Of a DNA stretch of 64,000 bases, positions 20,768 through 37,290 are shown in pieces. Positions within the stretch are counted from its first letter, which is position 1, and each line of letters starts with the position of its first letter. Both the position numbers and the translations under genes were made by a program. The stretch is from the NCBI RefSeq assembly GCF_053078305.1, contig NZ_CP166879.1. One strand, given 5' to 3'. The notes under the pieces are model-generated. The model ran no database searches, was not told where the DNA came from, and saw nothing but the letters and a program-made list of their open reading frames with translations.

Positions 20768-21418
20768 TTAATTTGATTTATTCGCATCCATCAACGCTTT
20801 TAACTCCTCCGGCGTAAACGGTGGTTTGCGTCGGTGCAACATCGCATGGCAATTAGGGCACACAGGAAGTAAATCATTAACTGGATCCAGCAGGTAATCC
20901 TCTTTAATGGCTGAAAGCGGCACCAGGTGATGCATATGGATAAAGCCCTCAGCGATATCGCCATAGATCTTCACCAGATCAACGCCGCATACGTTGCACT
21001 GGCATCCGTGATATTCGACTGCTTTCTCGCGAGCTTTTTTATCGCGTTCATAGCTGTTTACCGTCACCTTTATCGCCGCACCTTCAACGTAGGTCCCCTG
21101 CGACGGCAACTCATCCGGGAACAGAACATCGGCTATGGGAGCCGCAGCGGCTTTATCCTGATGAATATGAAATCCCTGATCTATAAGTAGCTTGACGCAT
21201 TTAGATTTTATTCCGCCGGTGAAATCCGCAGGGGTAAATTGCGTCCCCGTCATCAATGTCGCTGCGATGCCAGCAATCGCCTTCGAGGGGTAACGTCGGC
21301 CATGATATTCAATCTCATACAACCGTGCAGGCTGGAACTGATGAGTTTCTCCCGCATCCCATAAATGAATAGCTTTGATGATATACCGCCGAGGAAGATG
21401 ATCGGGGAGTTTATTCAT
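20768..21418 (-). CDS. HNH endonuclease-domain protein (C-terminal CxxC...HH...CPNCH zinc/HNH motif) with uncharacterized N-terminal domain; possible modification-dependent restriction enzyme
   Basis: C-terminus CQCNVCGVD...HMHHLVPL...CPNCHAMLH read directly; no family assignment verified. Confidence 0.6.
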   Translation of the reverse strand: MNKLPDHLPRRYIIKAIHLWDAGETHQFQPARLYEIEYHGRRYPSKAIAGIAATLMTGTQFTPADFTGGIKSKCVKLLIDQGFHIHQDKAAAAPIADVLFPDELPSQGTYVEGAAIKVTVNSYERDKKAREKAVEYHGCQCNVCGVDLVKIYGDIAEGFIHMHHLVPLSAIKEDYLLDPVNDLLPVCPNCHAMLHRRKPPFTPEELKALMDANKSN

Positions 21419-21497
21419 GGAGAATGTCCTTATACGTTCTCAGAACAAGCAGCAAAAAAACAAATGAGATCAAAGTAATATATCTTCACTTGCAGGC

Positions 21498-22427
21498 TTG
21501 AACAGCAGAAAATTTGCGAGCATGATCGCAATTATTTCACTGCCAGGGATATCAATGGCTTCCAGTAAATCGCTACAGCAGGCAATTGCCAATATAAAAA
21601 TCTGGCATAAGGGTGAACAGCGCGCGCCGCATAAGCCATTGTTATTGCTATACGTATTAGCGGGATACCTGCATGGACATCCGCGCCTTTTCGATTATGG
21701 CTCGGAAATCTACGAACCTCTGCACAGTTTACTGGAACGTTTTGGGCCACAGCGTTCACAGTACCGACCTGATATGCCGTTCTGGCGATTACAAGGCGAC
21801 GGATTCTGGCAATTACACAATGCCGAGCGTTGCTCAACAGCAGGGAGCAGCCGACAACCGCCAGTGAAGGAACTGAACGAATACCACGTTGCAGGCGGTT
21901 TCGATGAACAGCACTACGCCCTGGTAACCGGCAATAAAAAACTCATCAATACTCTGGCGCAACAGATACTCGAAGCGCACTTCACCGAGAGTATTCAGGA
22001 AGAAATTGCTGACGAGCTGGGTTTTGATCTCCAGCAAATCCGTAAACAGCGCGACCCGTTATTTCGCAAAAATGTATTACGCGCTTATAAATACCAGTGC
22101 GCGATATGTGGCTTTAATATGCGCCACGACGACACCACCGTCGCGCTGGAAGCGGCGCATATAAAATGGAAACAGCACGGCGGTCCTTGTGAAATTCCTA
22201 ATGGCCTGGCGCTTTGCGCAATTCACCATAAAGCCTTTGATAAAGGATCGATTGGCCTGGACGAAAATATGCGGGTACTGGTATCAGATGCGGTAAACGG
22301 CGGAGGGATCGTTGAGAGATTATTCTGGGATTTTGACGGGAAAACTATTGCGTTGCCGCAGGTGCGTAAAAATTACCCTTATGAGGGGTTTGTGGAGTGG
22401 CATCGGAAAGAGGTTTTTAGGGGGTGA
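21498..22427 (+). CDS. HNH endonuclease-domain protein with ~180-aa N-terminal putative DNA-recognition domain (predicted restriction endonuclease type)
   Basis: C-terminal CAICGF...HIKWKQHGG...NGLALCAIHHKAFD HNH-like motif; divergent from preceding HNH gene. Confidence 0.6.
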   Translation: MNSRKFASMIAIISLPGISMASSKSLQQAIANIKIWHKGEQRAPHKPLLLLYVLAGYLHGHPRLFDYGSEIYEPLHSLLERFGPQRSQYRPDMPFWRLQGDGFWQLHNAERCSTAGSSRQPPVKELNEYHVAGGFDEQHYALVTGNKKLINTLAQQILEAHFTESIQEEIADELGFDLQQIRKQRDPLFRKNVLRAYKYQCAICGFNMRHDDTTVALEAAHIKWKQHGGPCEIPNGLALCAIHHKAFDKGSIGLDENMRVLVSDAVNGGGIVERLFWDFDGKTIALPQVRKNYPYEGFVEWHRKEVFRG

Positions 22428-22468: not shown

Positions 22469-22651
22469 TCAGTGCAGGATCTTGCCGCTAGTTTACAACT
22501 CGCCTTCGATAGCGGCGCAAAACGAGTTCTGTTGCCGATATCCTCGGCTATGGATATTCCAACAGTTCCGGCAGAGTTGTTTACCAAGTTTCAGGTAAGT
22601 TTTTACTCAGAACCGGTTGATGCGGTTTATAAGGCGCTGGATGTGAATTAA
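22469..22651 (+). pseudogene. Start-less 3' gene fragment encoding a Lon-protease-like C-terminus (...GAKRVLLPISSAMDIPTVPAELF...VDAVYKALDVN*)
   Basis: 60-codon open frame without start, GC-rich island in AT-rich surroundings, resemblance to Lon C-terminal region (GIKxVLIP...) from memory. Confidence 0.35.
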
Positions 22652-23049: not shown

Positions 23050-25320
23050 CTAATCATTTCCCTTACGAATATATGGGCCAAAAGCCCAAGAATCATAATA
23101 AGGGTGATGGACTAGTTTTTCATTAAATCGAACACTATAAGTTAATTTTTTTATATTTTTACGTACAGCATTAATACTGGGCAAAGAGGAAAGATAATCT
23201 ATAAACTTATCGATAGTGATTTCCCCTTCGCAACACTCAAACCCATCAATGATATTTTTCGCCATTTTTCCATTTTCATTTGTTTGATATATCACTCCAG
23301 GTATTCGTTGAAAAAAACTAGATAATGCATATTTGTCCGCTACATATGTATCATCCACATGATATTTCCCACCGAGCATAGTTGTAGTAACAATAAGCTT
23401 ATACACACCTTTGGGTTGCCATGTTGATGGTAGTTCGAATTCTTTAATGATCACATCAAGATGATTAAGATAATGTTCAGAAATTCGATTTATTTGTTGA
23501 AAATAAGAACGCATAAATTTATTATTATGATCATGTATTAATGAGCTATCTCCAACGATGTTACACACTTGCTGATAGTACTTACCATAATATATTGGTT
23601 GACCATTTGATTTTAGTTCTGTAAAAATCAAACAATCATCCAGGAGAATCACGCAATCGCACTGATAATTAGCATGAGCATCAATTGGAGAAGCTTTAAT
23701 CCCCGCATCACGAACTTGTTTTATAAATTGTTGCTCATGAAATCGCCCTTTACTTGCTTGAGAAATTTTTTTGGAACCAAATAATGACATTAGAGAGCGA
23801 GTCACTGAGCTATTTGCTATTAATGCAGGCATTAAGCATAAACCGTCCATACAGGGAATAAATGGGCAATCATTAAGATCATGTGATTTTGAATTGAAGG
23901 TAAAATAATCTATCAGTTTTTTTGCTGCATCTGCTGCAATCCCCTTACGTTGAAAGAATGATAACCAACTCTCACGGCTTTTTATGATCAGCCAGCGATC
24001 CAACTGTAGGGGTATAGGTTTTGTCGATGAAAATCTTTTGCTCATTTCTTCTTTAGATAACTCGACTAAACATTGATAAGCGTGCACCCAATTAAATAAT
24101 GATATATTCCCATATTCTTCATGAAGGTCATCAGGAGATATATTTTCCAACTCGCTTAGATGAAATGAGCTAAAAACGCCATCAGAATTTAAGTAAGATG
24201 GCATATGATCCTTTACCCAACTATTTAGATGAAAATGTTTGTTACTAAATTCATGAACTTCGCTATATAGATGTGACGCTCTCATCATTAGTCTATTTCT
24301 TGCAATCTCATAATCTCGGTATAAACAAAAACTATCAACCTCAAGAGAGTAAATGTTATTATCCAATTTTGTAAATACTGCACTACTTAGTCTGAAAAAG
24401 TCTCTTACTCTGCTTAATGAGTCAAAAACATTCCACTCATTAAGGTACCCTCCCATTGAAAGCAAGGTTTGTTTATTCACACAAGAAGTTAGTTTCAATG
24501 GCTCATGAGTCCGTAAATAAGAAAATATTCGTCCGGTGTAATTGGCTACCTCATCAAATGCCCTATCGATAACTCGAAAATATTCGATATCAGGTTCAGC
24601 ATGAATATTAATATTTTCAGAAACGATTACTCTGCTTAATGAGTCAAAAACATTCCACTCATTAAGGTACCCTCCCATTGAAAGCAAGGTTTGTTTATTC
24701 ACACAAGAAGTTAGTTTCAATGGCTCATGAGTCCGTAAATAAGAAAATATTCGTCCGGTGTAATTGGCTACCTCATCAAATGCCCTATCGATAACTCGAA
24801 AATATTCGATATCAGGTTCAGCATGAATATTAATATTTTCAGAAACGATAAATAATGGAAAAATCCTCTTCATTTTTTTAGGATCATTGACCACAACCAA
24901 GGATGATAATGATGATAAAAACATCTCACAAAACATGATGAGATTAAGTATTAATGCATGTGATTTTTTTGTATTTTTACGCCAAATACCAGCACATTTT
25001 GTAGCCGCAAAGAAAGAATTATTTATATCATGCATAATTTTACATTGACTCTCGAACTCAGAAATTAGTTCAATGTTATCAGGAAATGAGTTTACTAGCT
25101 CATTAATACATTTTTTGAATGTATTGTTATACTCAACTTCAGTCTGAACTGAAAATCTATTATAATAGATGGAAGATATTCTCAGCACATCCAAGGCGAT
25201 ATCTATACTAATATCATCTCTTTTTATGTACTCACAAAAAAAAGAACAAAACTGTTTCGGGTCGTTAGCAAGATTACTAATTCTAGTGGTATCATAAACT
25301 TTTTCCATTTTTCCATACAT
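23050..25320 (-). CDS. Hypothetical 756-aa AT-rich orphan protein; C-terminal region has a PD-(D/E)xK-like motif (CDCVILLDD...FTELK)
   Basis: Long uninterrupted ORF, low GC, no recognisable family; nuclease motif is inference only. Confidence 0.6.
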   Translation of the reverse strand: MYGKMEKVYDTTRISNLANDPKQFCSFFCEYIKRDDISIDIALDVLRISSIYYNRFSVQTEVEYNNTFKKCINELVNSFPDNIELISEFESQCKIMHDINNSFFAATKCAGIWRKNTKKSHALILNLIMFCEMFLSSLSSLVVVNDPKKMKRIFPLFIVSENINIHAEPDIEYFRVIDRAFDEVANYTGRIFSYLRTHEPLKLTSCVNKQTLLSMGGYLNEWNVFDSLSRVIVSENINIHAEPDIEYFRVIDRAFDEVANYTGRIFSYLRTHEPLKLTSCVNKQTLLSMGGYLNEWNVFDSLSRVRDFFRLSSAVFTKLDNNIYSLEVDSFCLYRDYEIARNRLMMRASHLYSEVHEFSNKHFHLNSWVKDHMPSYLNSDGVFSSFHLSELENISPDDLHEEYGNISLFNWVHAYQCLVELSKEEMSKRFSSTKPIPLQLDRWLIIKSRESWLSFFQRKGIAADAAKKLIDYFTFNSKSHDLNDCPFIPCMDGLCLMPALIANSSVTRSLMSLFGSKKISQASKGRFHEQQFIKQVRDAGIKASPIDAHANYQCDCVILLDDCLIFTELKSNGQPIYYGKYYQQVCNIVGDSSLIHDHNNKFMRSYFQQINRISEHYLNHLDVIIKEFELPSTWQPKGVYKLIVTTTMLGGKYHVDDTYVADKYALSSFFQRIPGVIYQTNENGKMAKNIIDGFECCEGEITIDKFIDYLSSLPSINAVRKNIKKLTYSVRFNEKLVHHPYYDSWAFGPYIRKGND
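24406..24849. repeat. Perfect tandem duplication of a 222-bp unit (2 copies) inside the 756-aa ORF, in frame (74-aa duplication)
   Basis: Identical DNA blocks beginning tactctgcttaatgagtcaaaaacattcc at 24406 and 24628; protein repeat VIVSENINIHAEPDIEYFRV... x2. Confidence 0.9.
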
Positions 25321-26285: not shown

Positions 26286-27154
26286 TCACATAAAAAGATT
26301 ATTAATTAGAGTACACTGTTGACATCCATTAATATCTACAGCTTTTAAAAAATCTGTGTTACTAATCAAAACAGCATTACTAACACCTGAAAACTGCAGC
26401 TGTGCATACATACCTAAGATAGATTTTTTTTCGTAATACTGAGATCTTCCTGTATAACTTTCACCAGTATTAGAACTTATAAATCGCCTCGTTCTTTCTT
26501 GTATCAATAAATTATTTTTAAGGAAGCTCAAAATATCTTGCTGCAATTGTTTGTTTTTGTTATGAAAATAACATAACAATTGATCCTCTAAGGTACCAAG
26601 CTGAGTGTTAACGTCATGAAAAATATACCCCCCCATTCACTCCCATTAAACTCAATAATACTTCCATTGGAGAGTTGAGTAGTATCTTCTAAACCTATCT
26701 CATTTTTAATCTCTGTTATTCTGGCATCAATGCCAAGTTCATCAGCATCAAAAAAATATAAAAATCTATATGCAATTTCTATACTGAAGTCATCTGTACC
26801 AGAAAGTTCTTTATACATAGTGACTAACTCAGCCCTTTCACGACTTCTGCCATCACCATTTAGATTATGTATAAAAATTAAGTTCCCGTTATGATAGAAA
26901 CAAACAGAAGGTAGTTTTGGCCCGTTTGGCTGAAAGCCAAGTTTTTTATCTGGAATTCTTACTTGACTTAGTTCTTTTTCAAAGCGTTTATCAAACGGTG
27001 GAGGTAATTGACCAATTTTAAGATCTTGAAGTTGGAATCCATTAACTAAAAGAATTCTGCTAAGAAAAGCGACGTCATGCTGTCCTTCACAAAAGGCAAC
27101 TATGACTCTATTATAAGATACACTCACAATTTTAGCCTCTAATATCAAGATCAA
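26286..27154 (-). CDS. Toprim-like (OLD/DUF4435-like) putative nuclease partner, split into two overlapping frames (188 aa + 116 aa) by a frameshift at a G7 homopolymer (26628-26634)
   Basis: Candidate Toprim acidic residues (CEGQHD ... FFDADE); the two frames join if the run were G8; start ambiguous (TTG at 27154 or GTG at 27127 preceded by GAGG). Confidence 0.5.
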
Positions 27155-29369
27155 TATTTTTTATCAAATAGCCAAATCTTTCGCCATCAGCCCTTTTCAC
27201 TACTACTTTATCGTCAACTTTGCTTAACTGAAATCCAGTAATGCAATCATTATTATAATCATTATTTAAAAAAGCTCTGATACATTCACCCGAATGTGAC
27301 GTAAGGAACACTTGCACATTGAAACGTTCTGCAAGTTGTTGCGTAAATTTAGTAAACTCCAATAGTAAACTATAATGAATCGCAGTTTCAAATTCATCAA
27401 TAAAAAGTACACCGTTACGACATGCAGCAAAAGATAAAGCTATATAAAAGATGCGCTGAATACCCTCTCCATAAGAAGTAAGATCGAAACTTCTGTTAAA
27501 ATCATATGCTGATTCTACGATAAACCTTTTGAGCTCCATGTCTTCAGTAAATCTGACATCTTTTATCGTTGGCTCAATTTTATTCATGAATTCAATAACA
27601 AGGCCGATAGCGGATTGTATATTTAAATCATCTGATTCTGAGTCAGTTACAGACGTTAAATTTGCACCTATACTTTTGTTATAATCAGTGAGCAAATCGT
27701 CTATATCGTAGAAATAAGGGCTTTTAAATGACGATGAACACAAATGCGAAACTTGATCAGCGTTCCTTCTCATACGTTCATGGATAAAAGTATGGACTGT
27801 GTTATTTCTAAATTCTCCATCAATGCTAGACTTTAAGCTATAAGATGCTATATAGTCATCTTGTTTATCAATTGAAGAATCATCATATTTAATCATTTCA
27901 ACAGTAACATTACTATCATCAAATACTCCTGACAAGATTATTTTATCTTGGAAAAGAGCATTTAGCAATGTTGGACTCAAAGTACTGATTTTATTTTTTT
28001 GCCTAATAAGATTAAAATGCGATGAAATATCATTACGCTGCGTCAATAAGTAAATTGCTTCAAGCAATGAAGTTTTTCCAGCATTATTAAAGCCAGCAAT
28101 GATATTAATCTTATTGAAATTATCCAATGAGAAGTTTTTAAAGAATTTATATTTTTTGATATAAATGGATTTAAAATGTTTTTTTACTCCATACTCAAAA
28201 TTAGTTGTATAGTTTCCTCCTTCGATATTTATAGCCATCTGCTTTGGCATTATTTGTGTTAGTTTTTCTTTTGCATCATCTAATAAGCGCAAATCCTCTT
28301 GGTTTATGAGGCTACTATATAGATTTAAATCCTTTAAGGCGTCTTCAAGCTTGCTTAAAGCATTTTTATAGTTTTGCTGATTTACTGAACCGCTCGCAGC
28401 TAATCCTCTTGCAAGGCTACGTTCATCCTCCATTACCTTCAAGGCTTTTTCATTATTGATGAACAAAGCAAGATCTCGTATCTCAAGAGATTTAGTAATT
28501 ATAGGTTCTAGCTCAACGTATTCACCATTACTTTCCTCTTCAATATCATCTTCTAGCTCATTTTTCTCAAGGTATTCATCTGTTTTAGAGATCCACGAAA
28601 AAAGCCTATCAAGATTCACTAAATTTCTAGCATAATAACCGTTATCACTCCAGTCTAACCAAGATTTAATTACAGGCTTTTTGATTATTTCTTCAAAAAT
28701 ACCAAACATACTTGGTTCGAATTGCTCACCATACTCACTTGTTTTATATAAGGAAATTAGATTATAAACTCTAAGCATAGAGCGAAGACGCGTTTTAGAA
28801 ATACCGAGCGAACTAACTAGCTCATCTTCTTTTTCAACATACTCATCTCGAGTTTTGTCTTCATATGGTTTTAAAAAATCATAAAGCAGTTTGGACTGAT
28901 TATATGTTGACCACTTTTTATTACCACTTATATGCTTTAATCCCATTACAATCAGATGTTTTTCAACATCTTGATTATTATGGATTTCGAAAGGAACACT
29001 TCTAAAAATAGATGGATCTAGTTTTCCAATATCAAACCCCTTTTCATATGCTTCTTGCAATGCTTTCAGCGCCGTTACACGACGATTTCCCTCAAGGACT
29101 AAATAATTGTTATCTCCTAAATCCTTTACTTGAATAACATCAACATCTAAGTATCCATTAGATTTAAAACTTGCTATTAGATCTTTGATATTCTCTTGTC
29201 TATTTCCTTCTATAAAAAAGCGAGTCCTACGCTGAATTGTTGGATCTAGCATGTCCTTTTCTGAGACTGGCTTGTGCTGGTCATTGTCAACAAAACGGTA
29301 GTTATTAGGATCTAGAAATAAATTTTTTAAATTTTTGCTAATGCGCGGGCGAATTTGCTCGACATTCAT
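27132..29369 (-). CDS. ParB/Srx-like N-terminal domain fused to ABC-type (AAA_15/21, OLD/AriA-like) ATPase; putative anti-phage defence ATPase
   Basis: N-terminal LVLEGNRRVTALKAL (ParB GxRR-like); C-terminal Walker A GFNNAGKTS, signature-like SYGEG, Walker B VLFIDEFE, H-loop TSHS; GAGGTGA RBS before ATG. Confidence 0.65.
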   Translation of the reverse strand: MNVEQIRPRISKNLKNLFLDPNNYRFVDNDQHKPVSEKDMLDPTIQRRTRFFIEGNRQENIKDLIASFKSNGYLDVDVIQVKDLGDNNYLVLEGNRRVTALKALQEAYEKGFDIGKLDPSIFRSVPFEIHNNQDVEKHLIVMGLKHISGNKKWSTYNQSKLLYDFLKPYEDKTRDEYVEKEDELVSSLGISKTRLRSMLRVYNLISLYKTSEYGEQFEPSMFGIFEEIIKKPVIKSWLDWSDNGYYARNLVNLDRLFSWISKTDEYLEKNELEDDIEEESNGEYVELEPIITKSLEIRDLALFINNEKALKVMEDERSLARGLAASGSVNQQNYKNALSKLEDALKDLNLYSSLINQEDLRLLDDAKEKLTQIMPKQMAINIEGGNYTTNFEYGVKKHFKSIYIKKYKFFKNFSLDNFNKINIIAGFNNAGKTSLLEAIYLLTQRNDISSHFNLIRQKNKISTLSPTLLNALFQDKIILSGVFDDSNVTVEMIKYDDSSIDKQDDYIASYSLKSSIDGEFRNNTVHTFIHERMRRNADQVSHLCSSSFKSPYFYDIDDLLTDYNKSIGANLTSVTDSESDDLNIQSAIGLVIEFMNKIEPTIKDVRFTEDMELKRFIVESAYDFNRSFDLTSYGEGIQRIFYIALSFAACRNGVLFIDEFETAIHYSLLLEFTKFTQQLAERFNVQVFLTSHSGECIRAFLNNDYNNDCITGFQLSKVDDKVVVKRADGERFGYLIKNIDLDIRG

Positions 29370-29634
29370 ATGTCACCTCAATGGTGTAGGAACTATACAA
29401 TGCAACTTTACTTGATACCTCAGCAATCAACAACTTCATGTTTTTGAAACTAAGCGCGCGCAGCCCCGCACGCCTGCCCGCTTCGCTTAACAGACTGGTT
29501 TTCATGCACCTCATAAATCGTCTCAGAAGCCACCAAACAAGGGTTTTCTCGTCAAAAATGGTGCATAAGACTCATGCGTTTTCATGCGCCATAGACATGC
29601 ACTCATTCGCTCTCATGCCAGCCAGGAAAAGGGG

Positions 29635-29662
29635 ATAAAAAATCCCGGTACTGGACCGGGAT
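29635..29662 (-). terminator. Rho-independent terminator after the delta/Ogr gene
   Basis: Stem atcccggt-loop-accgggat followed by T-run on the minus strand. Confidence 0.55.
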
Positions 29663-29682
29663 TACGTGGGCGTTCTTTCTAA

Positions 29683-29964
29683 TCAGACAGGAATCTGCTG
29701 ACGGCTTGACAGTTTTGACGCGGAGCCATAGCGATTAAGTGTTTGCTGTTGTTTTTCCGGGGATTGTGCTTTGTCTGATAGCTGTTCATTGCGTCGGGGT
29801 TTCATGATTATCTTATCCACACTCTCCAGTGCCGTAAATGTGCAGGAACATTCCAGATTCTGGCACTGATACCACGAGCGTTTAACTGACGGAGCTTCAT
29901 AGGCTGCTGTTCTGGCGTGTGCAACTGTACCGCATTCCGGACATTTAAGTGCCATTAATATCAC
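29683..29964 (-). CDS. Ogr/Delta-family zinc-finger late-gene activator
   Basis: MALKCPECGTVAHARTAAYEA...WYQCQNLECSCTF matches the Ogr C4 zinc-finger pattern. Confidence 0.8.
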   Translation of the reverse strand: MILMALKCPECGTVAHARTAAYEAPSVKRSWYQCQNLECSCTFTALESVDKIIMKPRRNEQLSDKAQSPEKQQQTLNRYGSASKLSSRQQIPV

Positions 29965-30512
29965 TCCTGTATATCGTTAATGTCATTCAGGCGTTGCTGA
30001 AAACGCAGATGTTGTGCCGGGGTGTAAGAGCCCTGGCAATCACGAATCATCCCGGGGTCAGGCATCAAACCGGATTCATCCAGGATCTCACGATAATCCC
30101 CGGCAATTTCAGGCGGTGTTATTGTCAGCTGGCGAACCAGAGCACTGCGTAATATACGGGACGCAACGTCAACCCCTCCGCGCCCCTTCAGGAACGGAGC
30201 CAGTGCAGATGTCAGGGCTGCCCCATTCGCCTGCATAAAATTGCTGAGAGCGGCTTCTGTGCAGGCTTCCATCAGTAAATGCTGCGAGTAAATGCATTCG
30301 CGCGCAGCACAGTTAATTTGCCATTTCAGCACATCCAGACGTTCCCGCAGTAATTCGAGCTGTCGGGCATAATCTGCTGGTTTTTCTGTGGCAGCGAGGA
30401 GAGATGCTATCTGTTGTTCAACGGCTTTTCGGCTCTCACTATGTCCGGCCCACAGAATACGGGCATTCCGAAAACTGGTAAGTGCCTGGTCAGGCGTGCC
30501 TCGGGCCGTCAT
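29961..30512 (-). CDS. P4-like late-operon protein (tentatively Psu-like)
   Basis: 183-aa helical protein in late operon between Sid-like and delta genes; assignment by size and position only. Confidence 0.4.
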   Translation of the reverse strand: MTARGTPDQALTSFRNARILWAGHSESRKAVEQQIASLLAATEKPADYARQLELLRERLDVLKWQINCAARECIYSQHLLMEACTEAALSNFMQANGAALTSALAPFLKGRGGVDVASRILRSALVRQLTITPPEIAGDYREILDESGLMPDPGMIRDCQGSYTPAQHLRFQQRLNDINDIQE

Positions 30513-31252
30513 ACTGCTTTCTCCTTCTCAGCAAGTTCCTGACGAACCTTAATTTTATGCATAGCTGCCGGAGAGAGTTGATTACTGAAATCCAGACGCG
30601 CCGCATAATCCGGGGCAATTCCCGCCAGTTTAAACACCGGGTCCTGTTCAGGCATCGCATCGTTAGCCAGAGCCGGTCTGGTGATATGTTTATGAATAAA
30701 GTCTTTCAGCACTGTGTCCGGGTCATTAACTGAATTCACCACACCCACAACGGCACTGGCTTCCCGGCCCATTGTGGATTTAAGCAGGCTCAGCGTCTGA
30801 ATAAGCGCTTTTCCATGCGATTGCATAAAATCTTCCCAGATTTGTTTTGCGCGAATATCCACAAGAATGTTATGCGCGTGGATATACTTTCCGGCTAATT
30901 CCGCAGCTTTCTGCGGCAAAAGTGCATTTTCGCTTTCCTGAGCCGCCAGCAGCTCATCAAAATCCTCAAGCGTTTCTCGTCCCAGCGCAATTTCCGTGCG
31001 CAGTTTTTTCATTTCCTTTGAAACCACGCCCTGACTTTCACGAAACAGCGTGCGCCACTCCTCATTCAGTGTGTTCGTCGTGGCTTCCATCTCAGCGCGA
31101 CGCTGGCGGATTGTCGCAATATTATCCGCTGCCGCTTTCTGCTGACGACGTGCTTCAAGCCATGCGTTTCTGGCTGTGTTCATGGTTTCCAGTGCCCGCT
31201 GCGTTACAGCCGGAAAAGTGGAAAGGTTGTTATTCACTGCGGTGTTGTTCAT
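30509..31252 (-). CDS. P4-like late-operon protein (tentatively Sid-like capsid size-determination scaffold)
   Basis: 247-aa helical/coiled-coil-like protein, first gene of late operon; assignment by size and position only. Confidence 0.4.
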   Translation of the reverse strand: MNNTAVNNNLSTFPAVTQRALETMNTARNAWLEARRQQKAAADNIATIRQRRAEMEATTNTLNEEWRTLFRESQGVVSKEMKKLRTEIALGRETLEDFDELLAAQESENALLPQKAAELAGKYIHAHNILVDIRAKQIWEDFMQSHGKALIQTLSLLKSTMGREASAVVGVVNSVNDPDTVLKDFIHKHITRPALANDAMPEQDPVFKLAGIAPDYAARLDFSNQLSPAAMHKIKVRQELAEKEKAV

Positions 31253-31430
31253 GGCTTCTCCTGTCGGGTTGGTTCGTTACGTCAATTGTGTCGTGGCTGA
31301 CACAAGCACACTATCGGTGCTCAGTGTGTGGTGGCTGGCACAACGGGCGCTTGCGGTTATTCAGACGTGGCTATGAAAGCCAGCCAGATAAAAATGCCCT
31401 CAGTTTCAGTCTGCTTTATGTCCCTGATGC

Positions 31431-31618
31431 GGTGGAACAGGTGAAACATGTGTTACAGCTTTGTTTTATAAAGCACTTATATACACTGCACCGGTGGAAC
31501 ATCGCGGGTAACAAGGTGGAACAGCGGATTGGCTGGCGTTACATCTGTTCCACCTCACTATTTCAGAAGGTGGAACAGGTTCAGCCCTGTAAAATACGGT
31601 TGTTCCACCTGTTTCACC
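31431..31618. repeat. Iteron array (GGTGGAACA / TGTTCCACC, at least 7 copies in both orientations); probable P4-type ori/crr alpha-binding sites
   Basis: Repeats read directly downstream of the alpha gene; resemble the P4 TGTTCACC iteron. Confidence 0.6.
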
Positions 31619-31652
31619 TGTTACCCTTAATAAATAAGACTCACGCAAAGCC

Positions 31653-34325
31653 TTAACCCGGCACCTCGCTGTTGAAGACATAGAGCCTGCGGGGATTCAT
31701 CTCTGGCGGGCGAATGGTTGTCTGGAGTTTGCCATCAGTGGAGGGCAGCAGGTATCCACGATCTGCGCACAGACGAGCCACCTTGCGCGGGTCAAATCCC
31801 CTGCAGATTTCTTTCCAGCCGGACGGCATGACATAGAACGTAGTGACAGCTTCCGTGCCCTGCGCGGTACTGCCTTTCTCCACCCTGCGCCAGCCCACCA
31901 TATTGCCGGGGCGGTTGCGCTCGTCATACCAGTCTGCAAAGCGGCTGTACTGATTCGCGGTAAAGAAACTGCGAACCTGCTCCAGTGCGGCAATATCTTC
32001 CTGATTGGCGGTGTGCCCGCGATCTTTCAGCCATGCGTTCAGGCAGACGCGGGTTGCCCGCAGTGCTTCACCCTCAGGCCAGCCGGTGATACCCAGACGG
32101 GTTGCCAGTTCACCCGCCATCGCCACCAGTGCAAAGCGATTCACAGCCCGGCCCACCTGGTTGCCTGCATCTTTCGGAGTCAGGGCGGCAGCATATTCCT
32201 TCATCAGCGATTTTGCCTGTGCCGTTAGTCCGTTAAGATCAGCGGTCAGTGCTTTCAGCCACTCCCGGAACGGCGAACCGTAGTAGCAGGACGTGGCCCA
32301 TTCAAGATGCTCTGCCAGAGCCTTGCCGCTGTCGAAGCCGTGCAGCTCCTCAAAAACGCCAAACTTCCCGGAATCGCTGGGGATCTGGATCATCCTGACT
32401 TCCATCCCGGCAAAAGTACGCTCACCGGCCTTTGCCGCATGTTCGGTCAGAGATAACTCGCCAGTTGAAAAGAACAACAGGCGCCACTGCTTACGGGTAC
32501 GCAGCTCACCGTCCGTACCGGCACGACCCTTGCCCTGACCGTTTGCCAGCATGTAGGCGATACTGCCTGCCTCGCGTCCGTCAACTTCCCGGATCTCATC
32601 AAGCATCATGGCGGCATCGTTGCGGCGGCTGGCGCATCCCTCCAGCGCGTTGCCGGTGGCCCGCCATGTCTGCCAGTAGTCAGGCCCGCCGCAGACGGAG
32701 GTTGCCGCTTTCATGGTGGTGGTCTTACCGTCTGTCGATTCCCCTTTGAGGTGGTAGCCGCCGCCGTCCATACCAACCAGCCGTAACAGTGGTGCAGCAA
32801 AGGCCAGGCTGACAGCAAATGCCACGCGGGAGTTGCCGGTACAGTAGCGGGATACGTTCTCCCGCCATTCCTCTGTTGTACCCGACACGCGGAAATCACG
32901 CCCCTGCACGGAAGTGGTCTGGAGAATGACACCCTCTGCACCTTCACCGCTGACCTCATCCTGCAGGACGTAAACCTGACCATGCCAGCCAGTACGGCTG
33001 ACGCAGGTCACGCGGCGTTCCGGTTTACACAGTGAGATATATTCCATCAGGCGTGCGCGTGCCTCACCGGTGGTGCTGATATAAGACAGCCCGTTAACCA
33101 GCAGTACCCGGCGCAGTTCCTCACCACTGCCGCTCAGCATTTCCATCGGCATCGCCCAGCGGCGACGCTCACCCCATGTATCTTCCCATTCCAGCAGTCG
33201 TCCGAAGTTACCGCCATCGGCATCGCAGGTGATTGCCGTAACGCGCAGCGGGCTGCATATTTTGACGTTCTGGATCTCCGTCTCACCGTTGCGCTGTACC
33301 TGCTTTTCATACCAGAGATATTCCTGGGTAAGACGGAACCCGTGCGGCAGTTGCGTGCGGCCTTCCCCGCACAGTACCAGACCGTTGCGAAAGACTTCAC
33401 GGGCACGGGTAATACCGTGCTCCCGATGAAAGTCATTCCAGTCAGCCTTAATCTCTCCTGGTGGCAGCGTCATCCAGCCGCCAACAGCTTTTGCCGCCCG
33501 TTCAGCAAAGGCTCTGCCGGGATTCTCCCCCCCGTCCTGAAAATCGTTATCACCGGCGATGATAATTTTTACCTCAGGCCAGCGTGCCCGCAGCGACTGC
33601 GCCACATTGGGCAGGTTGCCCGCAGATATGGCAGCCACTACGCATCCGGCAGTGAGCTGGCTTACCGTCAGCGCCGTAGCGTAACCTTCGGTAATCACCA
33701 CCTGTACCGGTGGTTCAGACGGTAACGGGCTGAGCGACACAAACGCGCCTTTCATCGTGCTGCCGGGCAGTATGCTTTTTTCACCCGTCGGGGCGATAAG
33801 CTGTGCACCGGTCACGGCTCCGGTGTTGGTCGTGAGTGGTAACAGCAGAGAACCGGCAGGAAAATCCTTACCGCTGATATGCTGCACGCTTCCGGTCAGA
33901 GAGGCTGGGTATCCGGCGAACCCTTTTCCTGTCAGATAGGCGCTTTCTCCCGTGTGGCTCTCTTTCATCAGCGCCGCCACGGTAAGACCCATGTCGCGTT
34001 TAGGGGCTTTTTGTCTGGCAGGCTTAACAGGCAGTTCCTGCACATCCGGCACATTAAGCATCTGCGCCACCTCCTGCGCAGCCTTTCTGACGCTGTAACC
34101 GGTTACGAGCTTAACCAGATCCAGACCGTCACCATTGCCACACTGGCTGCAGATCCACGTCCCGCGCCCGTCAAGGTCATCAAGGCGAAAACGATCCTTG
34201 CCCCCACATTTCGGGCAGGGACCGTGCCTGCCGTTTTCAGGTACATCAATACGCAGCATCTGCAGAATAACGGGCCATTTCCCCCGCGCGGCGGCTGAAA
34301 TCTGCGTAACCGTCTGTATTGTCAT
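31653..34325 (-). CDS. P4 alpha-like primase/helicase replication protein
   Basis: 890 aa; N-terminal Cys-rich zinc-binding region (CPKCGG...CSQCGN), ATP-binding GESTDGKTT motif. Confidence 0.8.
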   Translation of the reverse strand: MTIQTVTQISAAARGKWPVILQMLRIDVPENGRHGPCPKCGGKDRFRLDDLDGRGTWICSQCGNGDGLDLVKLVTGYSVRKAAQEVAQMLNVPDVQELPVKPARQKAPKRDMGLTVAALMKESHTGESAYLTGKGFAGYPASLTGSVQHISGKDFPAGSLLLPLTTNTGAVTGAQLIAPTGEKSILPGSTMKGAFVSLSPLPSEPPVQVVITEGYATALTVSQLTAGCVVAAISAGNLPNVAQSLRARWPEVKIIIAGDNDFQDGGENPGRAFAERAAKAVGGWMTLPPGEIKADWNDFHREHGITRAREVFRNGLVLCGEGRTQLPHGFRLTQEYLWYEKQVQRNGETEIQNVKICSPLRVTAITCDADGGNFGRLLEWEDTWGERRRWAMPMEMLSGSGEELRRVLLVNGLSYISTTGEARARLMEYISLCKPERRVTCVSRTGWHGQVYVLQDEVSGEGAEGVILQTTSVQGRDFRVSGTTEEWRENVSRYCTGNSRVAFAVSLAFAAPLLRLVGMDGGGYHLKGESTDGKTTTMKAATSVCGGPDYWQTWRATGNALEGCASRRNDAAMMLDEIREVDGREAGSIAYMLANGQGKGRAGTDGELRTRKQWRLLFFSTGELSLTEHAAKAGERTFAGMEVRMIQIPSDSGKFGVFEELHGFDSGKALAEHLEWATSCYYGSPFREWLKALTADLNGLTAQAKSLMKEYAAALTPKDAGNQVGRAVNRFALVAMAGELATRLGITGWPEGEALRATRVCLNAWLKDRGHTANQEDIAALEQVRSFFTANQYSRFADWYDERNRPGNMVGWRRVEKGSTAQGTEAVTTFYVMPSGWKEICRGFDPRKVARLCADRGYLLPSTDGKLQTTIRPPEMNPRRLYVFNSEVPG

Positions 34326-34705
34326 ACTTCCCCCTGATACAACGTCACACCGGTACTGCAGAAGTCATCAAAGGCCGCCGGAAGCGTGCGGTACATCTCC
34401 GCCATCACTTCACAGCCGCGCGCGGTCAGTACCGGCGGCGCGGTCAGCAGTGACGGCTCCAGCATGTCAGTCAGCAGTGCCAGCGCGGCAGCGGCGCCCT
34501 GTGCTTCGCCGTACTCGTTAATCAGTGCGCACTCGATATGCAGCGCAATGGCCATTTCAATACGCTCCACCGTCAGGCTGTGCGGACCATACTGATCACT
34601 GCCAGTTTCGTTCAGCATTTTCTGCCGCCATGCTGAAGCAATAGCCCGTCGGTAAAGCGCGGTGGTCATTTCTGCCGGGAAAATGGAAACCTGCGGCTGG
34701 TTCAT
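34322..34705 (-). CDS. Hypothetical P4-like early protein
   Basis: 127-aa ORF overlapping alpha start by 4 nt (translational coupling). Confidence 0.5.
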   Translation of the reverse strand: MNQPQVSIFPAEMTTALYRRAIASAWRQKMLNETGSDQYGPHSLTVERIEMAIALHIECALINEYGEAQGAAAALALLTDMLEPSLLTAPPVLTARGCEVMAEMYRTLPAAFDDFCSTGVTLYQGEV

Positions 34706-34986
34706 CTGGCACCTCCTTCAATCAGTGCGCAGCTGTGTGCAATATCCGTCAAATCTGCCCGCAGGTACTCCATCAGCGCGGCGACACCAGGCGCACAGCC
34801 TGCGTCCAGTGCTCCGGCCTGAGACGGGTATTCAGAAAAGAGAAGCTGGAGCATGTCGCAGGCATTTCTTGCGCGGATCAGCTTTCCGAAACCGTCCTCT
34901 GACAACCCATAGGCAAAAGCACCGGTATTGTGTTTTTCAGGCAAAGTGTGGCCCTGAGCACCGTTGTGCCCGTTTGAAATATTCAT
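34702..34986 (-). CDS. Hypothetical P4-like early protein
   Basis: 94-aa ORF overlapping the next gene by 4 nt. Confidence 0.45.
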   Translation of the reverse strand: MNISNGHNGAQGHTLPEKHNTGAFAYGLSEDGFGKLIRARNACDMLQLLFSEYPSQAGALDAGCAPGVAALMEYLRADLTDIAHSCALIEGGAR

Positions 34987-35017
34987 CGTGAATTACTCCG
35001 TTTTCAGCGGTATTTTG

Positions 35018-35407
35018 TCAGAGAAACTTTGAATAGTGACCGTCGTCAGGCTCAGCAGAACGCCGTATGGTACGCTCCCGCCAGCGGATAAATAGCACAG
35101 ACGGATGCAGTGTCAGCGGGCCGGAACCACTACTGCCTGCAGGAGCTGGTGCAGGCTTAAAGAGCGGTACATCAAACAGGCGCGTATACCGCTGTTCAAA
35201 CCATGCCAGAGGGCAGGAAGAAAGCTGGTTGTCGCTGTCATGACGTATCAGCACTTCACAGCTGAATTCAGGATTAACCAGCGCCACAGAGGGCGAGGCT
35301 TCTATTAATCGGATAATCGTGACCGTCCAGCCACGTTCATGCCGCCAGCGTTCGCCGGGGTGCGGATAATTACGCATGTTCACCTCCGCAGGGAATGCGC
35401 CCGGCAA
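35018..35407 (-). CDS. Hypothetical P4-like early protein (true start possibly the internal Met at ~35377)
   Basis: 129-aa ORF in the same early-operon orientation. Confidence 0.4.
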   Translation of the reverse strand: MPGAFPAEVNMRNYPHPGERWRHERGWTVTIIRLIEASPSVALVNPEFSCEVLIRHDSDNQLSSCPLAWFEQRYTRLFDVPLFKPAPAPAGSSGSGPLTLHPSVLFIRWRERTIRRSAEPDDGHYSKFL

Positions 35408-35621
35408 AGCTCAGTACACAGTCCGGGGCAAGTCTGCGCCGCGCTGACCGCTCATTATCTGCGGTGAGCCTTAACATCACAGGACGGGCATTGCGTTGAC
35501 TGCGGTTGATCGCCGCAAATAACCAGGTACACTTCTGTTTAGCCATCTTCGTTACCTCATATAGCGGATTGGTCAGAAGCCCGGTTAGTGTTGCTGCACT
35601 GTCGGGCTTCGCACTCACAAG

Positions 35622-35713
35622 GTGAATCGCACCTTTAATTTTAAAGCTACCCTTAAGTGAATCGCACTTCAAGCTTTTTATTATCATTTTTTTTGCGTAT
35701 ACTGAATCGCACC
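35622..35713. promoter_or_regulatory. Three direct repeats of GTGAATCGCAC (35622, 35657, 35702) in the divergent control region; putative operator
   Basis: Repeats read directly upstream of the 61-aa + strand ORF and the early operon. Confidence 0.45.
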
Positions 35714-35733
35714 TAACGCGAGGAGATCCAGTA

Positions 35734-35919
35734 ATGGCAACGAGTTCAACTAACAACAAGTCGCAGCAACTTAATGCTCGTTTCCCACATGATGTAGTTG
35801 CAGAATTAGAAAGCAACCTTGAAGATGGAGAAACGAAAGCGCAATTCATTGTTACTGCTGTAAAAGGCGAGATTAAACGCCGACAGCGCAGGAAAAATAA
35901 GCCAGAGCAAGGAAGTTGA
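35734..35919 (+). CDS. Small basic protein (61 aa), possible DNA-binding regulator
   Basis: ORF with GAGGAG RBS; basic C-terminus (IKRRQRRKNK); no family verified. Confidence 0.4.
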   Translation: MATSSTNNKSQQLNARFPHDVVAELESNLEDGETKAQFIVTAVKGEIKRRQRRKNKPEQGS

Positions 35920-36030
35920 ATAGAGAAGCCAACAGACGTTCTCTCTGGTCCCATGTTAATTTCAGTAAGCGACAATATTTTTAAGCCCACAAATTCATTA
36001 TGTCGGGCTTTTTTATTAGTGATTTTCATA

Positions 36031-36246
36031 TCACTCACCACGAGAGGCATATATTTGCTCTTGAATCCAGTGATCAACTTCGCTTTCAACGAATGAAATT
36101 GCACGAGTTCCTATTTTCACCGGACGGGGAAATGTATTGTTTGCAAGCTGTTTGTAAAGCCATGCCTTGCTACGCTGAACGCGTCTTAATACCTCTTTTG
36201 CTGAGATAAGAGTCTGATTATCTGAAAAGCTGTTTGCATATTCCAT
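36031..36246 (-). CDS. alpA: AlpA-family phage transcriptional regulator / excisionase-like protein
   Basis: ...ISAKEVLRRVQRSKAWLYKQLANNTFPRPVKIGTRAISFVESEVDHWI AlpA-like HTH. Confidence 0.75.
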   Translation of the reverse strand: MEYANSFSDNQTLISAKEVLRRVQRSKAWLYKQLANNTFPRPVKIGTRAISFVESEVDHWIQEQIYASRGE

Positions 36247-36622
36247 CTTGTTACTCCGTGTTCTACTTAAGTTCACGGTGACTTTAAACACTGGGAAAAA
36301 GTGATTCTAGTGATAATGGAATCTATTAAGACAAACATTGATTCTATTGAAAAACAATAATCTCCACTGAAAAAAAGAAGTAATATTCATATGAAAGAAC
36401 ACGGAAAGAAGGAAATGCACAAAACAATAAAATTAATAAAATTCATATAGATAGGATGGAAAATCAAAAAATCATACGTCAAAAGGTATTATTACATTTT
36501 AACGATTCATATTACCTAGGAATTAGCACAGTATTACACCGTATTACATCGTATTACCCCCTATAGCCCCTTAGAGCCTCTTGTGGCCCTTCTATTGAGA
36601 GATAGCCAGAAAATTAATAAAT

Positions 36623-37261
36623 TCACTCTCCGTATTTTATAATGTCTTTCCCCAGCTTTATTTTCTTATAAAACGTAGCTTTTTTAATCCCTTTCATTAG
36701 AATCTCATTCTCATTACAAAAAGAAACAATATCATTATATATAACACTATTATCGCTATAACTTACCTTTCCATGTCTCTTAAGCAATTCAATTAGTAAA
36801 TAAATTAATTTACAACTATAATTATCCTCATCATCTTTTCTGTACTGCCCTCTACCATTACTCCTTAATTTTTTACCAACTTCACATAATTCACTTCCTC
36901 CTAACGTCATTAGAATATCGCTCCAATCTTTATTTTTTACCTGTTGTCGTAATGCGTTCTCAATTCTCTCCTTAATCTCCACAGGTACAATACCTTCCCT
37001 CTGAAAGATATAAGCAGCAGTTAATAATAAGTTCGCCTCCACTTTTTGCGTGGCGGATACGTTTTTATATTCATTAATTAATTGTAGATTTCTGGTTATT
37101 GCCTTTCTTAATCTAATAACCTCTTTTAATTGAACCTCAGTCAATTCATCATTTTCGGTATCATAGTCAAAACCATTCATAGCAAGCGCCACTTCGTGTG
37201 GCGTTATGTAAGTTAACCTATTAAAATAAAACAAATTATTATCAAATTGAGTATTGTTCAT
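36623..37261 (-). CDS. Hypothetical AT-rich protein (212 aa) between integrase and alpA; possible accessory cargo
   Basis: Clean ORF, low GC, no recognised motifs. Confidence 0.5.
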   Translation of the reverse strand: MNNTQFDNNLFYFNRLTYITPHEVALAMNGFDYDTENDELTEVQLKEVIRLRKAITRNLQLINEYKNVSATQKVEANLLLTAAYIFQREGIVPVEIKERIENALRQQVKNKDWSDILMTLGGSELCEVGKKLRSNGRGQYRKDDEDNYSCKLIYLLIELLKRHGKVSYSDNSVIYNDIVSFCNENEILMKGIKKATFYKKIKLGKDIIKYGE

Positions 37262-37290
37262 TTAAATCTCTCCGCAGCCCCCAATGGTAA

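Follow-up and report, generated by a model that had tools for sequence, protein, structure and literature searches.

EcoWI is a phosphorothioate-dependent restriction enzyme that cuts GpsAAC/GpsTTC at N7/N6 with Mg2+ (Lutz et al. 2020, PMC7461809). The enzyme has been studied both in vitro and in vivo; it acts as a homodimer, carries a zinc finger of the CxxC/CxxH type and restricts dnd+ plasmids by itself (PMC7461809), and it already serves as a reagent (EcoWI-seq). In ScoMcrA of Streptomyces coelicolor, a head domain, a sulfur-binding domain (SBD), an SRA domain and an HNH domain follow one another in one chain (PDB 5ZMM; Liu et al. 2018, PMC6224610), and the roles of the residues that line its SBD pocket have been described (PMC6224610). 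Here we use sequence comparison to study a locus in which relatives of these domains are divided between two genes.

The basic arrangement is outlined in Table 1. In the window (the whole stretch of DNA analysed, 64,000 nucleotides), which comes from E. coli, two intact HNH genes lie back to back and divergent in the interval between nanS, a sialic-acid gene, and leuX, which encodes tRNA-Leu. We favour, with a probability of about 0.7, the explanation that they encode two self-sufficient nucleases directed against foreign DNA bearing marks that the host lacks, namely an allele of EcoWI (gene 2) and a head-HNH enzyme in the style of type IV restriction (gene 1). This explanation draws on our own observations, namely the structures of the genes, the homologies of their domains, catalytic and sulfur-pocket residues that are intact, a gene 2 product nearly identical to an E. 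coli W protein, genome distribution and domain fusions, and on EcoWI biochemistry that comes from the literature.

Table 1. Features of the nanS-leuX interval (positions are those of the window).
Feature	Positions	Strand	Basis or detail
Gene 1 (head-HNH endonuclease)	20768..21418	-	ORF from ATG, 216 aa, 24.2 kDa
Gene 1 HNH (beta-beta-alpha-Me) core with CxxC...CxxC zinc finger, residues ~139-197	20828..21004	-	Pfam HNH
Gene 1 head domain, residues 1-90	21149..21418	-	homology to ScoMcrA N-terminal head (Pfam PF26345 ScoMcrA_N); pI 9.4
Intergenic region, divergent, 136 bp	21419..21554	.	sequence read
Conserved -35-like hexamer TTGAAC	21498..21503	+	ortholog alignments; TTGATC, TTGAAT or TTGATT in orthologs
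18-bp palindrome TTGCGAGCAT(G/C)ATCGCAA, core TGCGA-N6-TCGCA	21514..21531	.	ortholog alignments
-10-like hexamer CATGAT	21521-21526	+	17-bp spacer from TTGAAC
Gene 2 (predicted SBD-HNH restriction endonuclease, EcoWI-type allele)	21555..22427	+	290 aa, 33.3 kDa (most likely start)
Gene 2 sulfur-binding domain, residues ~1-160	21555..22034	+	alignment to ScoMcrA SBD (5zmo, 5zmm), E 2e-8
Gene 2 HNH_2 core: C182xxC185, H202, N216, C221xxH224, H225	22098..22262	+	Pfam HNH_2 PF13391, 1.3e-9
BrxL C-terminus remnant (BREX Lon-like protease), 59 codons, flanking relic	22472..22651	+	TIGR02653, PADLOC

Gene starts and the putative promoter region

The first-pass annotation of this DNA had described a divergent pair of HNH genes directly after nanS, with products of 216 and 309 aa and a shared promoter region of 80 bp. 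The pair itself is borne out: both genes are present as ORFs, each contains a Pfam HNH motif, the ORF list confirms 216 aa for the gene on the - strand, and this gene ends 7 nt beyond the nanS stop at 20760, the two being convergent. The length given for gene 2 has to be revised. The longer ORF (21498..22427, +, 309 aa) opens with a TTG, and the start is most likely the ATG at 21555, which gives 290 aa. An identical gene 2 in strain 33F4 is annotated in RefSeq at 873 nt, the match to the NCBIfam profile NF045808 starts only at residue 25 of the 309-aa ORF, and an AGGGA Shine-Dalgarno (21545-21549) stands ahead of the ATG. Moreover, the reading frame 5' of ATG 21555 differs among orthologs, and so we take this DNA to be noncoding; the same use of different frames rules out a coding region running from TTG 21498 through the palindrome discussed below. 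The TTG at 21498 forms the first letters of the conserved -35-like TTGAAC. With ATG 21555 as the start, the spacer between the genes becomes 136 bp (21419-21554) instead of 80.

Little of this spacer is conserved between genera outside the block 21498-21539. Within the block, TTGAAC and CATGAT form a putative promoter of gene 2, which a consensus scan missed because the match is only 8/12, under the threshold of the scan. The same block holds the palindrome, present as one single copy in the window, whose core equals exactly the CRP-S core T4G5C6G7A8-N6-T15C16G17C18A19 (as defined in PMC1635313 and PMC6728893). An exact palindrome lies 5' of SBD-HNH genes in E. coli, Klebsiella, Citrobacter, Enterobacter, Salmonella and Buttiauxella; the exceptions among the orthologs examined are O157:H7, with a mismatch in one arm, and K-12, where the site is deleted. 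From its end to the ATG of gene 2 we count 23 nt (23-28 nt in orthologs); to the ATG of gene 1 the distance is anywhere between 95 and 137 nt, and the site is kept where gene 1 is missing. The centre of the site lies 32 nt ahead of gene 2's ATG, which makes it overlap the putative core promoter, at a place other than the class I position. An RNA hairpin or attenuator at the palindrome is not supported (MFE z-score -1.37, non-significant), and because the arms are invariant they allow no test of covariation. An invariant palindrome of CRP-S type on a predicted promoter of an EcoWI-type gene offers a testable lead to the control of a nuclease that could be toxic to its own host.

The two predicted nucleases

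We begin with gene 2. It scores 439.2 bits against NF045808, the model for SBD-HNH enzymes of the EcoWI/SprMcrA type (cutoff 180), over profile positions 2-284 of 284, and it shares 284 of 290 residues (98%) with WP_000168572.1 of E. coli W, a protein of the same length encoded at the same locus beside nanS. This E. coli W protein is presumably EcoWI, judging from what the enzyme is called and from the mass predicted (33.3 kDa calculated for gene 2 vs the 33.4 kDa published for EcoWI in PMC7461809); neither that paper nor its supplement gives an accession. Being 98% identical to its E. coli W counterpart, gene 2 is predicted to cleave in a phosphorothioate-dependent manner. When the protein is aligned to 5zmo/5zmm, the sulfur-pocket residues H116-R117-P of ScoMcrA correspond to H25-K26-P27 and Y164-P165 to M74-P75; in the ScoMcrA pocket, R117K and Y164M are tolerated or favourable (PMC6224610). 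The catalytic motif of the HNH domain and the zinc finger are likewise intact (Pfam HNH_2 and a check of the residues). Gene 2 is thus, by sequence, an allele of a known enzyme with a predicted activity, and alone it is nothing new. In the favoured explanation, its SBD would dock on Rp-phosphorothioate links in GpsAAC/GpsTTC, its HNH domain, in a homodimer, would cut both strands at a fixed distance (N7/N6, Mg2+), and incoming plasmid or phage DNA from dnd+ hosts would be destroyed.

Now we consider gene 1. A search of NCBIfam returned no model that matches it, the PADLOC mREase_IV models give weak, sub-threshold matches to both halves, and we found no experimental work on the protein in the literature. 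Its homologue in 33F4, WP_001037964.1 (98.9% identity over the first 95 residues), bears the RefSeq name 'HNH endonuclease'. Residues 141-197 match Pfam HNH PF01844 (i-E 1.2e-3), and a family alignment of 24 sequences shows no variation at the zinc ligands C141, C144, C187 and C190 or at H163, H164, N189, H191 and H195, which indicates an intact nuclease domain. The HNH catalytic residues, whose conservation the first-pass annotation had named as a point to check, are present in both genes, in gene 1 without variation across the 24 homologues.

The same annotation had called both N-terminal domains uncharacterised, and for gene 2 it was mistaken. Sequence comparisons identify in gene 2 a well-studied SBD of ScoMcrA type, and in gene 1, by sequence homology, the ScoMcrA head domain (Pfam ScoMcrA_N, PF26345), whose structure has been solved in ScoMcrA. 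A literature search for ScoMcrA_N or PF26345 gave nothing. A profile of the head domain collects 4151 cluster representatives at E <= 1e-3, and among 57 longer head-domain proteins that were sampled, the partner domains were HNH (19), EVE (12), HNH_2 (10) and McrB-type AAA_5 (8), more rarely MrcB_N (2), SRA (1) and AspBHI_N (1). As read from the domain predictions, these are the partners expected of type IV restriction, and since the head is fused elsewhere to HNH, EVE, SRA and McrB-type modules, a role in type IV restriction fits gene 1. The ScoMcrA head is a widespread module, and for finding its ligand the 216-aa protein of E. coli offers a simple and tractable case.

Gene 1 is most likely a second stand-alone enzyme in the style of type IV. 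Its small, basic head domain would bind DNA, possibly at a modification, and would deliver to it a zinc-finger nuclease of the McrA-type HNH kind. The earlier assignment of both genes to type IV, modification-dependent HNH enzymes stands for gene 2, as a member of a phosphorothioate-dependent family; for gene 1 the layout of a putative reader plus HNH holds, and the dependence on modification is what we infer. No methyltransferase gene was found beside the pair or within the nanS-leuX backbone (ORF list, RefSeq annotation), and the immediate neighbours of gene 1 are nanS and the SBD-HNH gene.

Could gene 1 have a function outside defence, as a housekeeping or repair HNH nickase, a selfish HNH gene of the homing type, or a regulator that acts on the palindrome to control gene 2? 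We consider this highly improbable. A pure regulator would have no need of the catalytic and zinc residues that are invariant in every case, and the palindrome accompanies SBD-HNH genes even where gene 1 is missing and is not found ahead of head-HNH genes that stand alone. Against a selfish element, 0/50,697 phage records contain at least 80% of the protein, and instead of an intron, intein, homing or packaging-HNH setting we see a chromosomal defence-island context. Solo copies of head-HNH genes have as neighbours type I R-M genes, AAA_15/AAA_21 ATPases, a cytosine-methyltransferase-like ORF and a helicase-PLD nuclease gene, and the fusion partners of the head domain listed above are restriction modules.

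A bolder proposal, which we regard as doubtful, is that the head domain reads a mark that has not been assigned to any restriction enzyme, or is a new sensor of foreign DNA, and that the EcoWI-type genes are under CRP (with or without Sxy) via the invariant TGCGA-N6-TCGCA operator. If true, type IV nucleases would include a large further class (~4000 protein clusters), with the 216-aa head-HNH protein as its minimal form, and restriction of phosphorothioated DNA would be tied to starvation and the DNA-uptake regulon.

Distribution, remnants and the question of cooperation

Citrobacter and Klebsiella also have the pair, as a unit of two genes. Across four genomic settings the unit keeps ~70% nucleotide identity, and the homology stops where the genes end, beyond which the flanks differ: nanS-leuX in E. 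coli, beside a tryptophanase-like gene in Citrobacter, between JetD-family and SymE-toxin genes in Klebsiella sp. R445, and beside a GH43 gene in K. quasipneumoniae. In the head-HNH clade at least 64% identical to gene 1, an SBD-HNH neighbour is present in 7/7 lineages examined. This tight linkage in the closest clade, with shared DNA that ends at the gene ends, could reflect cooperation. One can imagine a single cooperative system in which head-HNH and SBD-HNH act together: they might form a hetero-oligomer or serve as a pair of nickases, or the head protein might widen or license cleavage at phosphorothioate sites. Two polypeptides would then reproduce what ScoMcrA has in fused form, with head and SBD as neighbours in a single chain.

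We nevertheless judge cooperation unlikely. EcoWI alone, a homodimer, restricts PT plasmids (PMC7461809), and intact gene 1 is missing from E. coli W, where gene 2 is kept and gene 1 is reduced to a 105-bp remnant, and from E. coli O157, which joins Salmonella, Buttiauxella and Enterobacter in having orthologs of gene 2 without gene 1. Conversely, head-HNH genes lack an SBD-HNH partner in 8 lineages, and the more distant head-HNH genes are solitary. Full-length copies of gene 1 and gene 2 are found in 1238 and 1706, respectively, of 5426 complete E. coli genomes; both are full-length in 325, vs ~389 expected if they were independent, with ~910 genomes in which gene 1 is kept but gene 2 is not full-length and ~1380 the reverse, so that the pair is not enriched in these counts, which ignore phylogeny. 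With home-made HMMs we find an SBD in 0/268 head-domain/head-HNH homologues, and no fusion or adjacency of head and SBD outside the enterobacterial clade (268 proteins, all loci fetched). Elsewhere the SBD-HNH gene adjoins an Mrr_N-HNH gene instead, which looks like a stacking of independent enzymes. Since either gene can occur without the other, and in E. coli W gene 1 survives only as a remnant, we infer two autonomous enzymes that function independently, and their co-inheritance would follow from adjacency and not from mutual need.

The variability of the locus extends to its decay. The first-pass annotation had called this accessory DNA, which the survey across genomes upholds with variable presence and deletions; its remark that K-12 carries different content is imprecise, since the K-12 nanS-leuX interval holds deletion remnants of the same two genes, YthB among them, and not unrelated DNA. 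The K-12 small protein YthB and one K-12 pseudogene are in this way explained as relics of two restriction genes. Partial E. coli matches that could have been taken as divergent alleles turned out on inspection to be deletion remnants, and that reading was dropped. The pair sits in the old nanS-leuX flank, outside the P4-like island inserted at leuX. Downstream of gene 2 lies a BrxL remnant that matches TIGR02653 over 617-675/675 (E 4e-24) and PADLOC BrxL over 623-680/680, and that is a pseudogene in the RefSeq annotation of strain 33F4; it is not part of the HNH pair. We read the nanS-leuX flank as a defence hotspot in decay, which deletions are eroding in E. coli.

Comparison with known systems

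One of the closest known systems is EcoWI. Gene 2 shares with the E. coli W protein the locus, the SBD-linker-HNH_2 layout, the CxxC/CxxH zinc finger and the sulfur-pocket motif KPLLLL...PFW. Six substitutions separate the two (window residue first: H40N, R92L, G156R, K179N, H208Q, G278V), none of them at a pocket or catalytic position. The head-HNH neighbour is a remnant in E. coli W and intact in the window.

ScoMcrA is another relative. Here head and SBD are on two proteins with HNH domains of different subtypes (PF01844 in gene 1 vs PF13391 in gene 2), unlike in ScoMcrA, and an SRA domain was detected in neither protein of the pair (Pfam, structure-sequence alignments). Since head and SBD are on separate chains and SRA is lacking, the locus is related to ScoMcrA and is not a member of its family. 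Recognition differs as well: ScoMcrA recognises GpsGCC and 5mC/5hmC, and the EcoWI-type enzymes prefer GpsAAC/GpsTTC.

With the type IV enzymes EcoKMcrA and TagI (PDB 6GHC, 6GHS), gene 1 has in common an N-terminal domain followed by a C-terminal HNH and the absence of a methyltransferase. Its HNH domain aligns to residues 199-269 of 6ghc, with HH...CPNCH...H conserved. Only this half of the protein (residues 123-198) aligns to 6ghc, and no match to the McrA or TagI N-domain was found in gene 1, which places it outside the EcoKMcrA family with its 5mC-binding N-domain. The Mrr_N-HNH proteins of Klebsiella aerogenes, Enterobacter and Citrobacter portucalensis have an HNH cassette 53-55% identical to gene 1 residues 97-216, and their genes adjoin an EcoWI-type gene as gene 1 does. 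They differ in carrying an Mrr_N winged helix in place of the head, and in lying in tandem downstream of SBD-HNH, whereas gene 1 is divergent.

Finally, the exact CRP-S core is common to the palindrome at 21514-21531 and to CRP-S sites, the CRP sites of competence regulons that depend on Sxy (Cameron and Redfield 2006, PMC1635313). In known promoters CRP-S sites are class I, ~60 bp or more before the transcription start, whereas the palindrome, which overlaps the likely -10, ends 23 nt from the start codon. CRP-S sites of E. coli are mostly asymmetric; a symmetric TGCGA pair worked without Sxy in a reporter (PMC6728893).

Chromosomal setting and decay of the locus

Two different HNH endonuclease genes lie beside nanS, and both open reading frames noticed in the first-pass annotation are present: gene 1, whose N-terminus is a ScoMcrA-type head domain (head-HNH), and gene 2, which carries a ScoMcrA-type sulfur-binding domain (SBD-HNH, EcoWI-type). 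The finding is real and its general interpretation was right; the extent of gene 2 had to be revised. Reading gene 2 from TTG 21498 gives 309 aa and had left a spacer of 80 bp, but we place its true start, with near certainty, at ATG 21555, giving 290 aa and therefore a spacer of 136 bp. RefSeq annotates the identical gene in strain 33F4 (the closest complete genome) as 873 nt, the NCBIfam profile match on the long ORF begins at residue 25, and AGGGA stands 5 nt upstream of the ATG. Orthologs in Klebsiella, Citrobacter, Salmonella and Buttiauxella all start M-(A/T/P)-S-S-K at the equivalent ATG, upstream of which the reading frame differs among them.

The window covers the fim-nanCMS-leuX region of an E. 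coli chromosome, with the nanC, nanM and nanS block ending at 20760. In strain 33F4 the order is nanS, 'HNH endonuclease', 'phosphorothioated DNA-binding restriction endonuclease', a pseudogene fragment, a 678-aa hypothetical protein and leuX, with no island between nanS and leuX. That 33F4 has the pair but no island argues that the pair belongs to the old leuX flank, outside the P4-like element. Within that element PDC-M38A and PDC-M38B form a candidate defence pair, PDC-M38B being apparently split, possibly by a frameshift.

Between this element and gene 2 lies a 756-aa ORF of low GC content (33%) that has no match in NCBIfam or PADLOC. It contains a perfect in-frame tandem duplication of 222 bp (2.0 copies, 100% identical); its 33F4 ortholog is 678 aa. 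RefSeq labels nanS 'incomplete, missing C-terminus' in several genomes (L001 8081-9069 and other records), and the same records annotate, opposite the nanS 3' end and immediately past the stop of head-HNH, a hypothetical antisense ORF of 29 aa. The nanS ORF of the window runs uninterrupted for 335 codons, and the label looks like an annotation artefact tied to the YthB model.

Features of the locus and of comparison loci (window coordinates unless a locus is named)
Feature	Coordinates	Strand	Remarks
nanS	19753-20760
Gene 1 (head-HNH)	20768-21418	-	216 aa; converges on nanS, 7-nt gap
Conserved spacer block	21498-21539
Palindrome	21514-21531		TTGCGAGCAT(G/C)ATCGCAA
Gene 2 (SBD-HNH)	21555-22427	+
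BrxL remnant	22472-22651	+	59 codons; downstream of gene 2
756-aa ORF	23050-25320	-
Tandem duplication in 756-aa ORF	24405-24849
P4-like satellite at leuX	about 26286-38802
PDC-M38B	26588-27154 and 26286-26636		two ORFs
PDC-M38A	27132-29369		ParB-like N-terminus + AAA ATPase
Primase/helicase-like protein	31653-34325		890 aa; satellite
Icd-like protein	35370-36104		satellite
Integrase	37291-38574		satellite
tRNA-Leu(CAA) (leuX)	38718-38802
ythB (K-12-type strain 7FA)	L002 5980-6078		32 aa, MNKLPAHLSRQNCK...; equivalent to 21404-21418 joined to nanS 3' end
Type II Zorya (O157:H7 FRIK944)	L003 2060-6925		zorA2, zorB2, zorE
HNH cluster (K. aerogenes)	L091 2260-4636
SBD-HNH and Mrr_N-HNH (MGH24; C. 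portucalensis)	L024 2264-3908; L053 4785-6378
Head-HNH paralogue P0030	L093-L095 4001-4654

Partial matches in other E. coli could have been divergent alleles; this was ruled out, and they are deletion remnants instead. In K-12 a deletion has placed the opening codons of gene 1 directly before antisense sequence from the 3' end of nanS, yielding the 32-aa YthB (MNKLPAHLSRQ...). YthB shares its start codon with the head-HNH gene, continues into the nanS end in antisense orientation and is a chimeric relic of the deletion that removed the nuclease gene. YthB has been seen by tagging and immunoblot (Weaver et al.), and therefore the promoter and ribosome-binding site of gene 1 are active in K-12. 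A separate deletion between ACAGCAG repeats took out the K-12 palindrome together with the beginning of gene 2; what is left is the 'PT-DNA restriction endonuclease' pseudogene that neighbours YthB. The BrxL remnant, corresponding to the last 59 residues of this BREX Lon-like protease, is what is left of a BREX system that formerly adjoined the pair. In O157:H7 FRIK944 a type II Zorya system replaces nanC, nanS, most of nanM and the head-HNH gene and abuts the EcoWI-type gene, whose Shine-Dalgarno is altered.

A palindrome over the likely gene 2 promoter

The sole spacer block conserved between genera is cTTGA(A/T)(C/T)-N11-(T/G)TTGCGAGCAT(G/C)ATCGCA(A/T)(A/T)TAT, in which a -35-like TTGA(A/T)(C/T) precedes the palindrome by 11 bp, or by 10 bp in one locus; the palindrome's core is TGCGA-N6-TCGCA. 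This core lies upstream of SBD-HNH in 18 fetched loci, with one other match among the 101 fetched. The EcoWI-type genes examined in E. coli, Klebsiella, Citrobacter, Enterobacter, Salmonella and Buttiauxella have the palindrome upstream whatever their neighbours, with two exceptions: O157:H7 (one arm mismatch) and K-12 (site deleted). Because it is present without gene 1 and absent from solo head-HNH genes, the palindrome belongs to gene 2. We found no earlier report of it.

TGCGA-N6-TCGCA is also the core of Sxy-dependent CRP (CRP-S) sites (PMC1635313, PMC6728893), and known CRP-S promoters are class I. Here the centre of the palindrome lies 32 nt upstream of the gene 2 ATG, over the likely -10 hexamer (TTGAAC, 17 bp, CATGAT), a position that, unlike that in class I promoters, does not fit activation. 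The element probably acts as an operator overlapping the -10, and on the most economical reading it would repress or gate gene 2; CRP, alone or together with Sxy, is a candidate for binding it, as are the nuclease itself and some other factor. An RNA hairpin finds no support (z-score -1.37; the arms are invariant and allow no covariation test).

Two enzymes or one system

Could the two genes work as a cooperative pair? The divergent arrangement recurs in different places at about 70% nucleotide identity, with homology stopping at the gene ends: beside a tryptophanase-like gene in three Citrobacter genomes, between a JetD-family gene and a SymE-toxin gene in Klebsiella sp. R445, beside a type I HsdR-like gene in K. 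aerogenes and beside a GH43 gene in K. quasipneumoniae. ScoMcrA, moreover, fuses head and SBD domains in one chain. However, EcoWI is active alone (PMC7461809), E. coli W retains only a 105-bp remnant of gene 1, and gene 2 occurs without gene 1 in O157:H7, Salmonella, Buttiauxella, Enterobacter MGH24 and C. portucalensis. Head-HNH genes whose identity is 61% or lower stand alone in Atlantibacter, Pseudescherichia, Pantoea, an E. coli integrative element, Sulfurovum and others. In K. aerogenes SBD-HNH sits between head-HNH and Mrr_N-HNH, the latter being its sole partner in two other genomes. Among 5426 complete E. coli genomes (presence meaning at least 80% covered), 1238 have gene 1, 1706 have gene 2 and 325 have both, against ~389 expected under independence with kinship ignored. 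We therefore favour two autonomous enzymes, with a probability of about 0.7, and consider a cooperative pair unlikely.

Such neighbourhoods of SBD-HNH with Mrr_N-HNH, in K. aerogenes also with head-HNH, look like stacked independent reader-HNH enzymes. In Enterobacter sp. MGH24 and C. portucalensis SBD-HNH is followed by a tandem Mrr_N-HNH with a nuclease cassette sharing 53-55% identity with the gene 1 cassette; one HNH cassette seems to be exchanged among different N-terminal domains beside EcoWI-type genes. Many E. coli have a second head-HNH paralogue (P0030, 58% identical), which is carried on an integrative/conjugative-type element with HTH regulator genes on one side and TraI_2/ArdC genes on the other; SBD-HNH is absent from its neighbours at the three loci L093-L095.

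Comparison with known restriction enzymes

The C-terminal half of gene 1 is a complete McrA-like HNH zinc finger (aligned to 6ghc residues 199-269), in which H163, H164, N189, H191, H195, C141, C144, C187 and C190 are invariant among 24 homologues down to 37% identity. Its N-terminal 90 residues, which are basic (pI 9.4), match a single solved structure, the ScoMcrA head domain (phmmer E 1e-4; family profile E 2.3e-10, ScoMcrA residues 4-92), and precomputed Pfam annotation assigns homologues to PF26345 ScoMcrA_N. In ScoMcrA this domain is small, flexibly attached and of unknown function (Liu et al., PMC6224610); a literature search for the Pfam family found no paper. Among 1.84 billion representative proteins the head-domain profile finds 4151 at E <= 1e-3 (1594 at E <= 1e-10), about 100 to 1567 aa long, with the domain N-terminal or internal. 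Partners in a sample of 57 of the longer ones include HNH (19), EVE (12), HNH_2 (10), McrB-type AAA_5 (8), NOV_C (3), MrcB_N (2), DUF3427 (2), SAD/SRA (1) and AspBHI_N (1), that is, the sensors and effectors of modification-dependent restriction systems. In many phyla other N-terminal domains (e.g. Mrr_N, DUF7225) also precede the gene 1 HNH cassette, and a search of the phage collection found no full-length copy of gene 1. Partners, cassette swaps and absence from phages together give good circumstantial support to a putative role in type IV-style restriction.

Gene 2 scores 439 bits (cutoff 180) on NF045808, 'phosphorothioated DNA-binding restriction endonuclease'. Over residues about 4-142 its protein aligns with the ScoMcrA sulfur-binding domain (5zmo, 5zmm), with ScoMcrA H116-R117 and Y164-P165 corresponding to H25-K26 and M74-P75; in ScoMcrA R117K is neutral and Y164M strengthens binding (Liu et al., PMC6224610). 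The C-terminus is HNH_2 (C182xxC185, H202, N216, C221xxH224-H225), matching the CxxC/CxxH finger described for EcoWI. E. coli W encodes a 290-aa protein at exactly the same place adjoining nanS, identical to gene 2 at 284/290 positions. By the naming convention for restriction enzymes, we take EcoWI to be the enzyme of E. coli W. The gene 2 protein has a calculated mass of 33.3 kDa, compared with 33.4 kDa given for EcoWI (PMC7461809), a paper that gives no EcoWI accession; we infer that the E. coli W protein is EcoWI. That enzyme is an Mg2+-dependent homodimer, stimulated by two sites. It has a preference for GpsAAC/GpsTTC, its cleavage falls at N7/N6, and in vivo its restriction of dnd+ plasmids is complete (PMC7461809). 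The gene 2 half of the finding is an already characterised enzyme, and gene 1 a putative member of a known enzyme kind.
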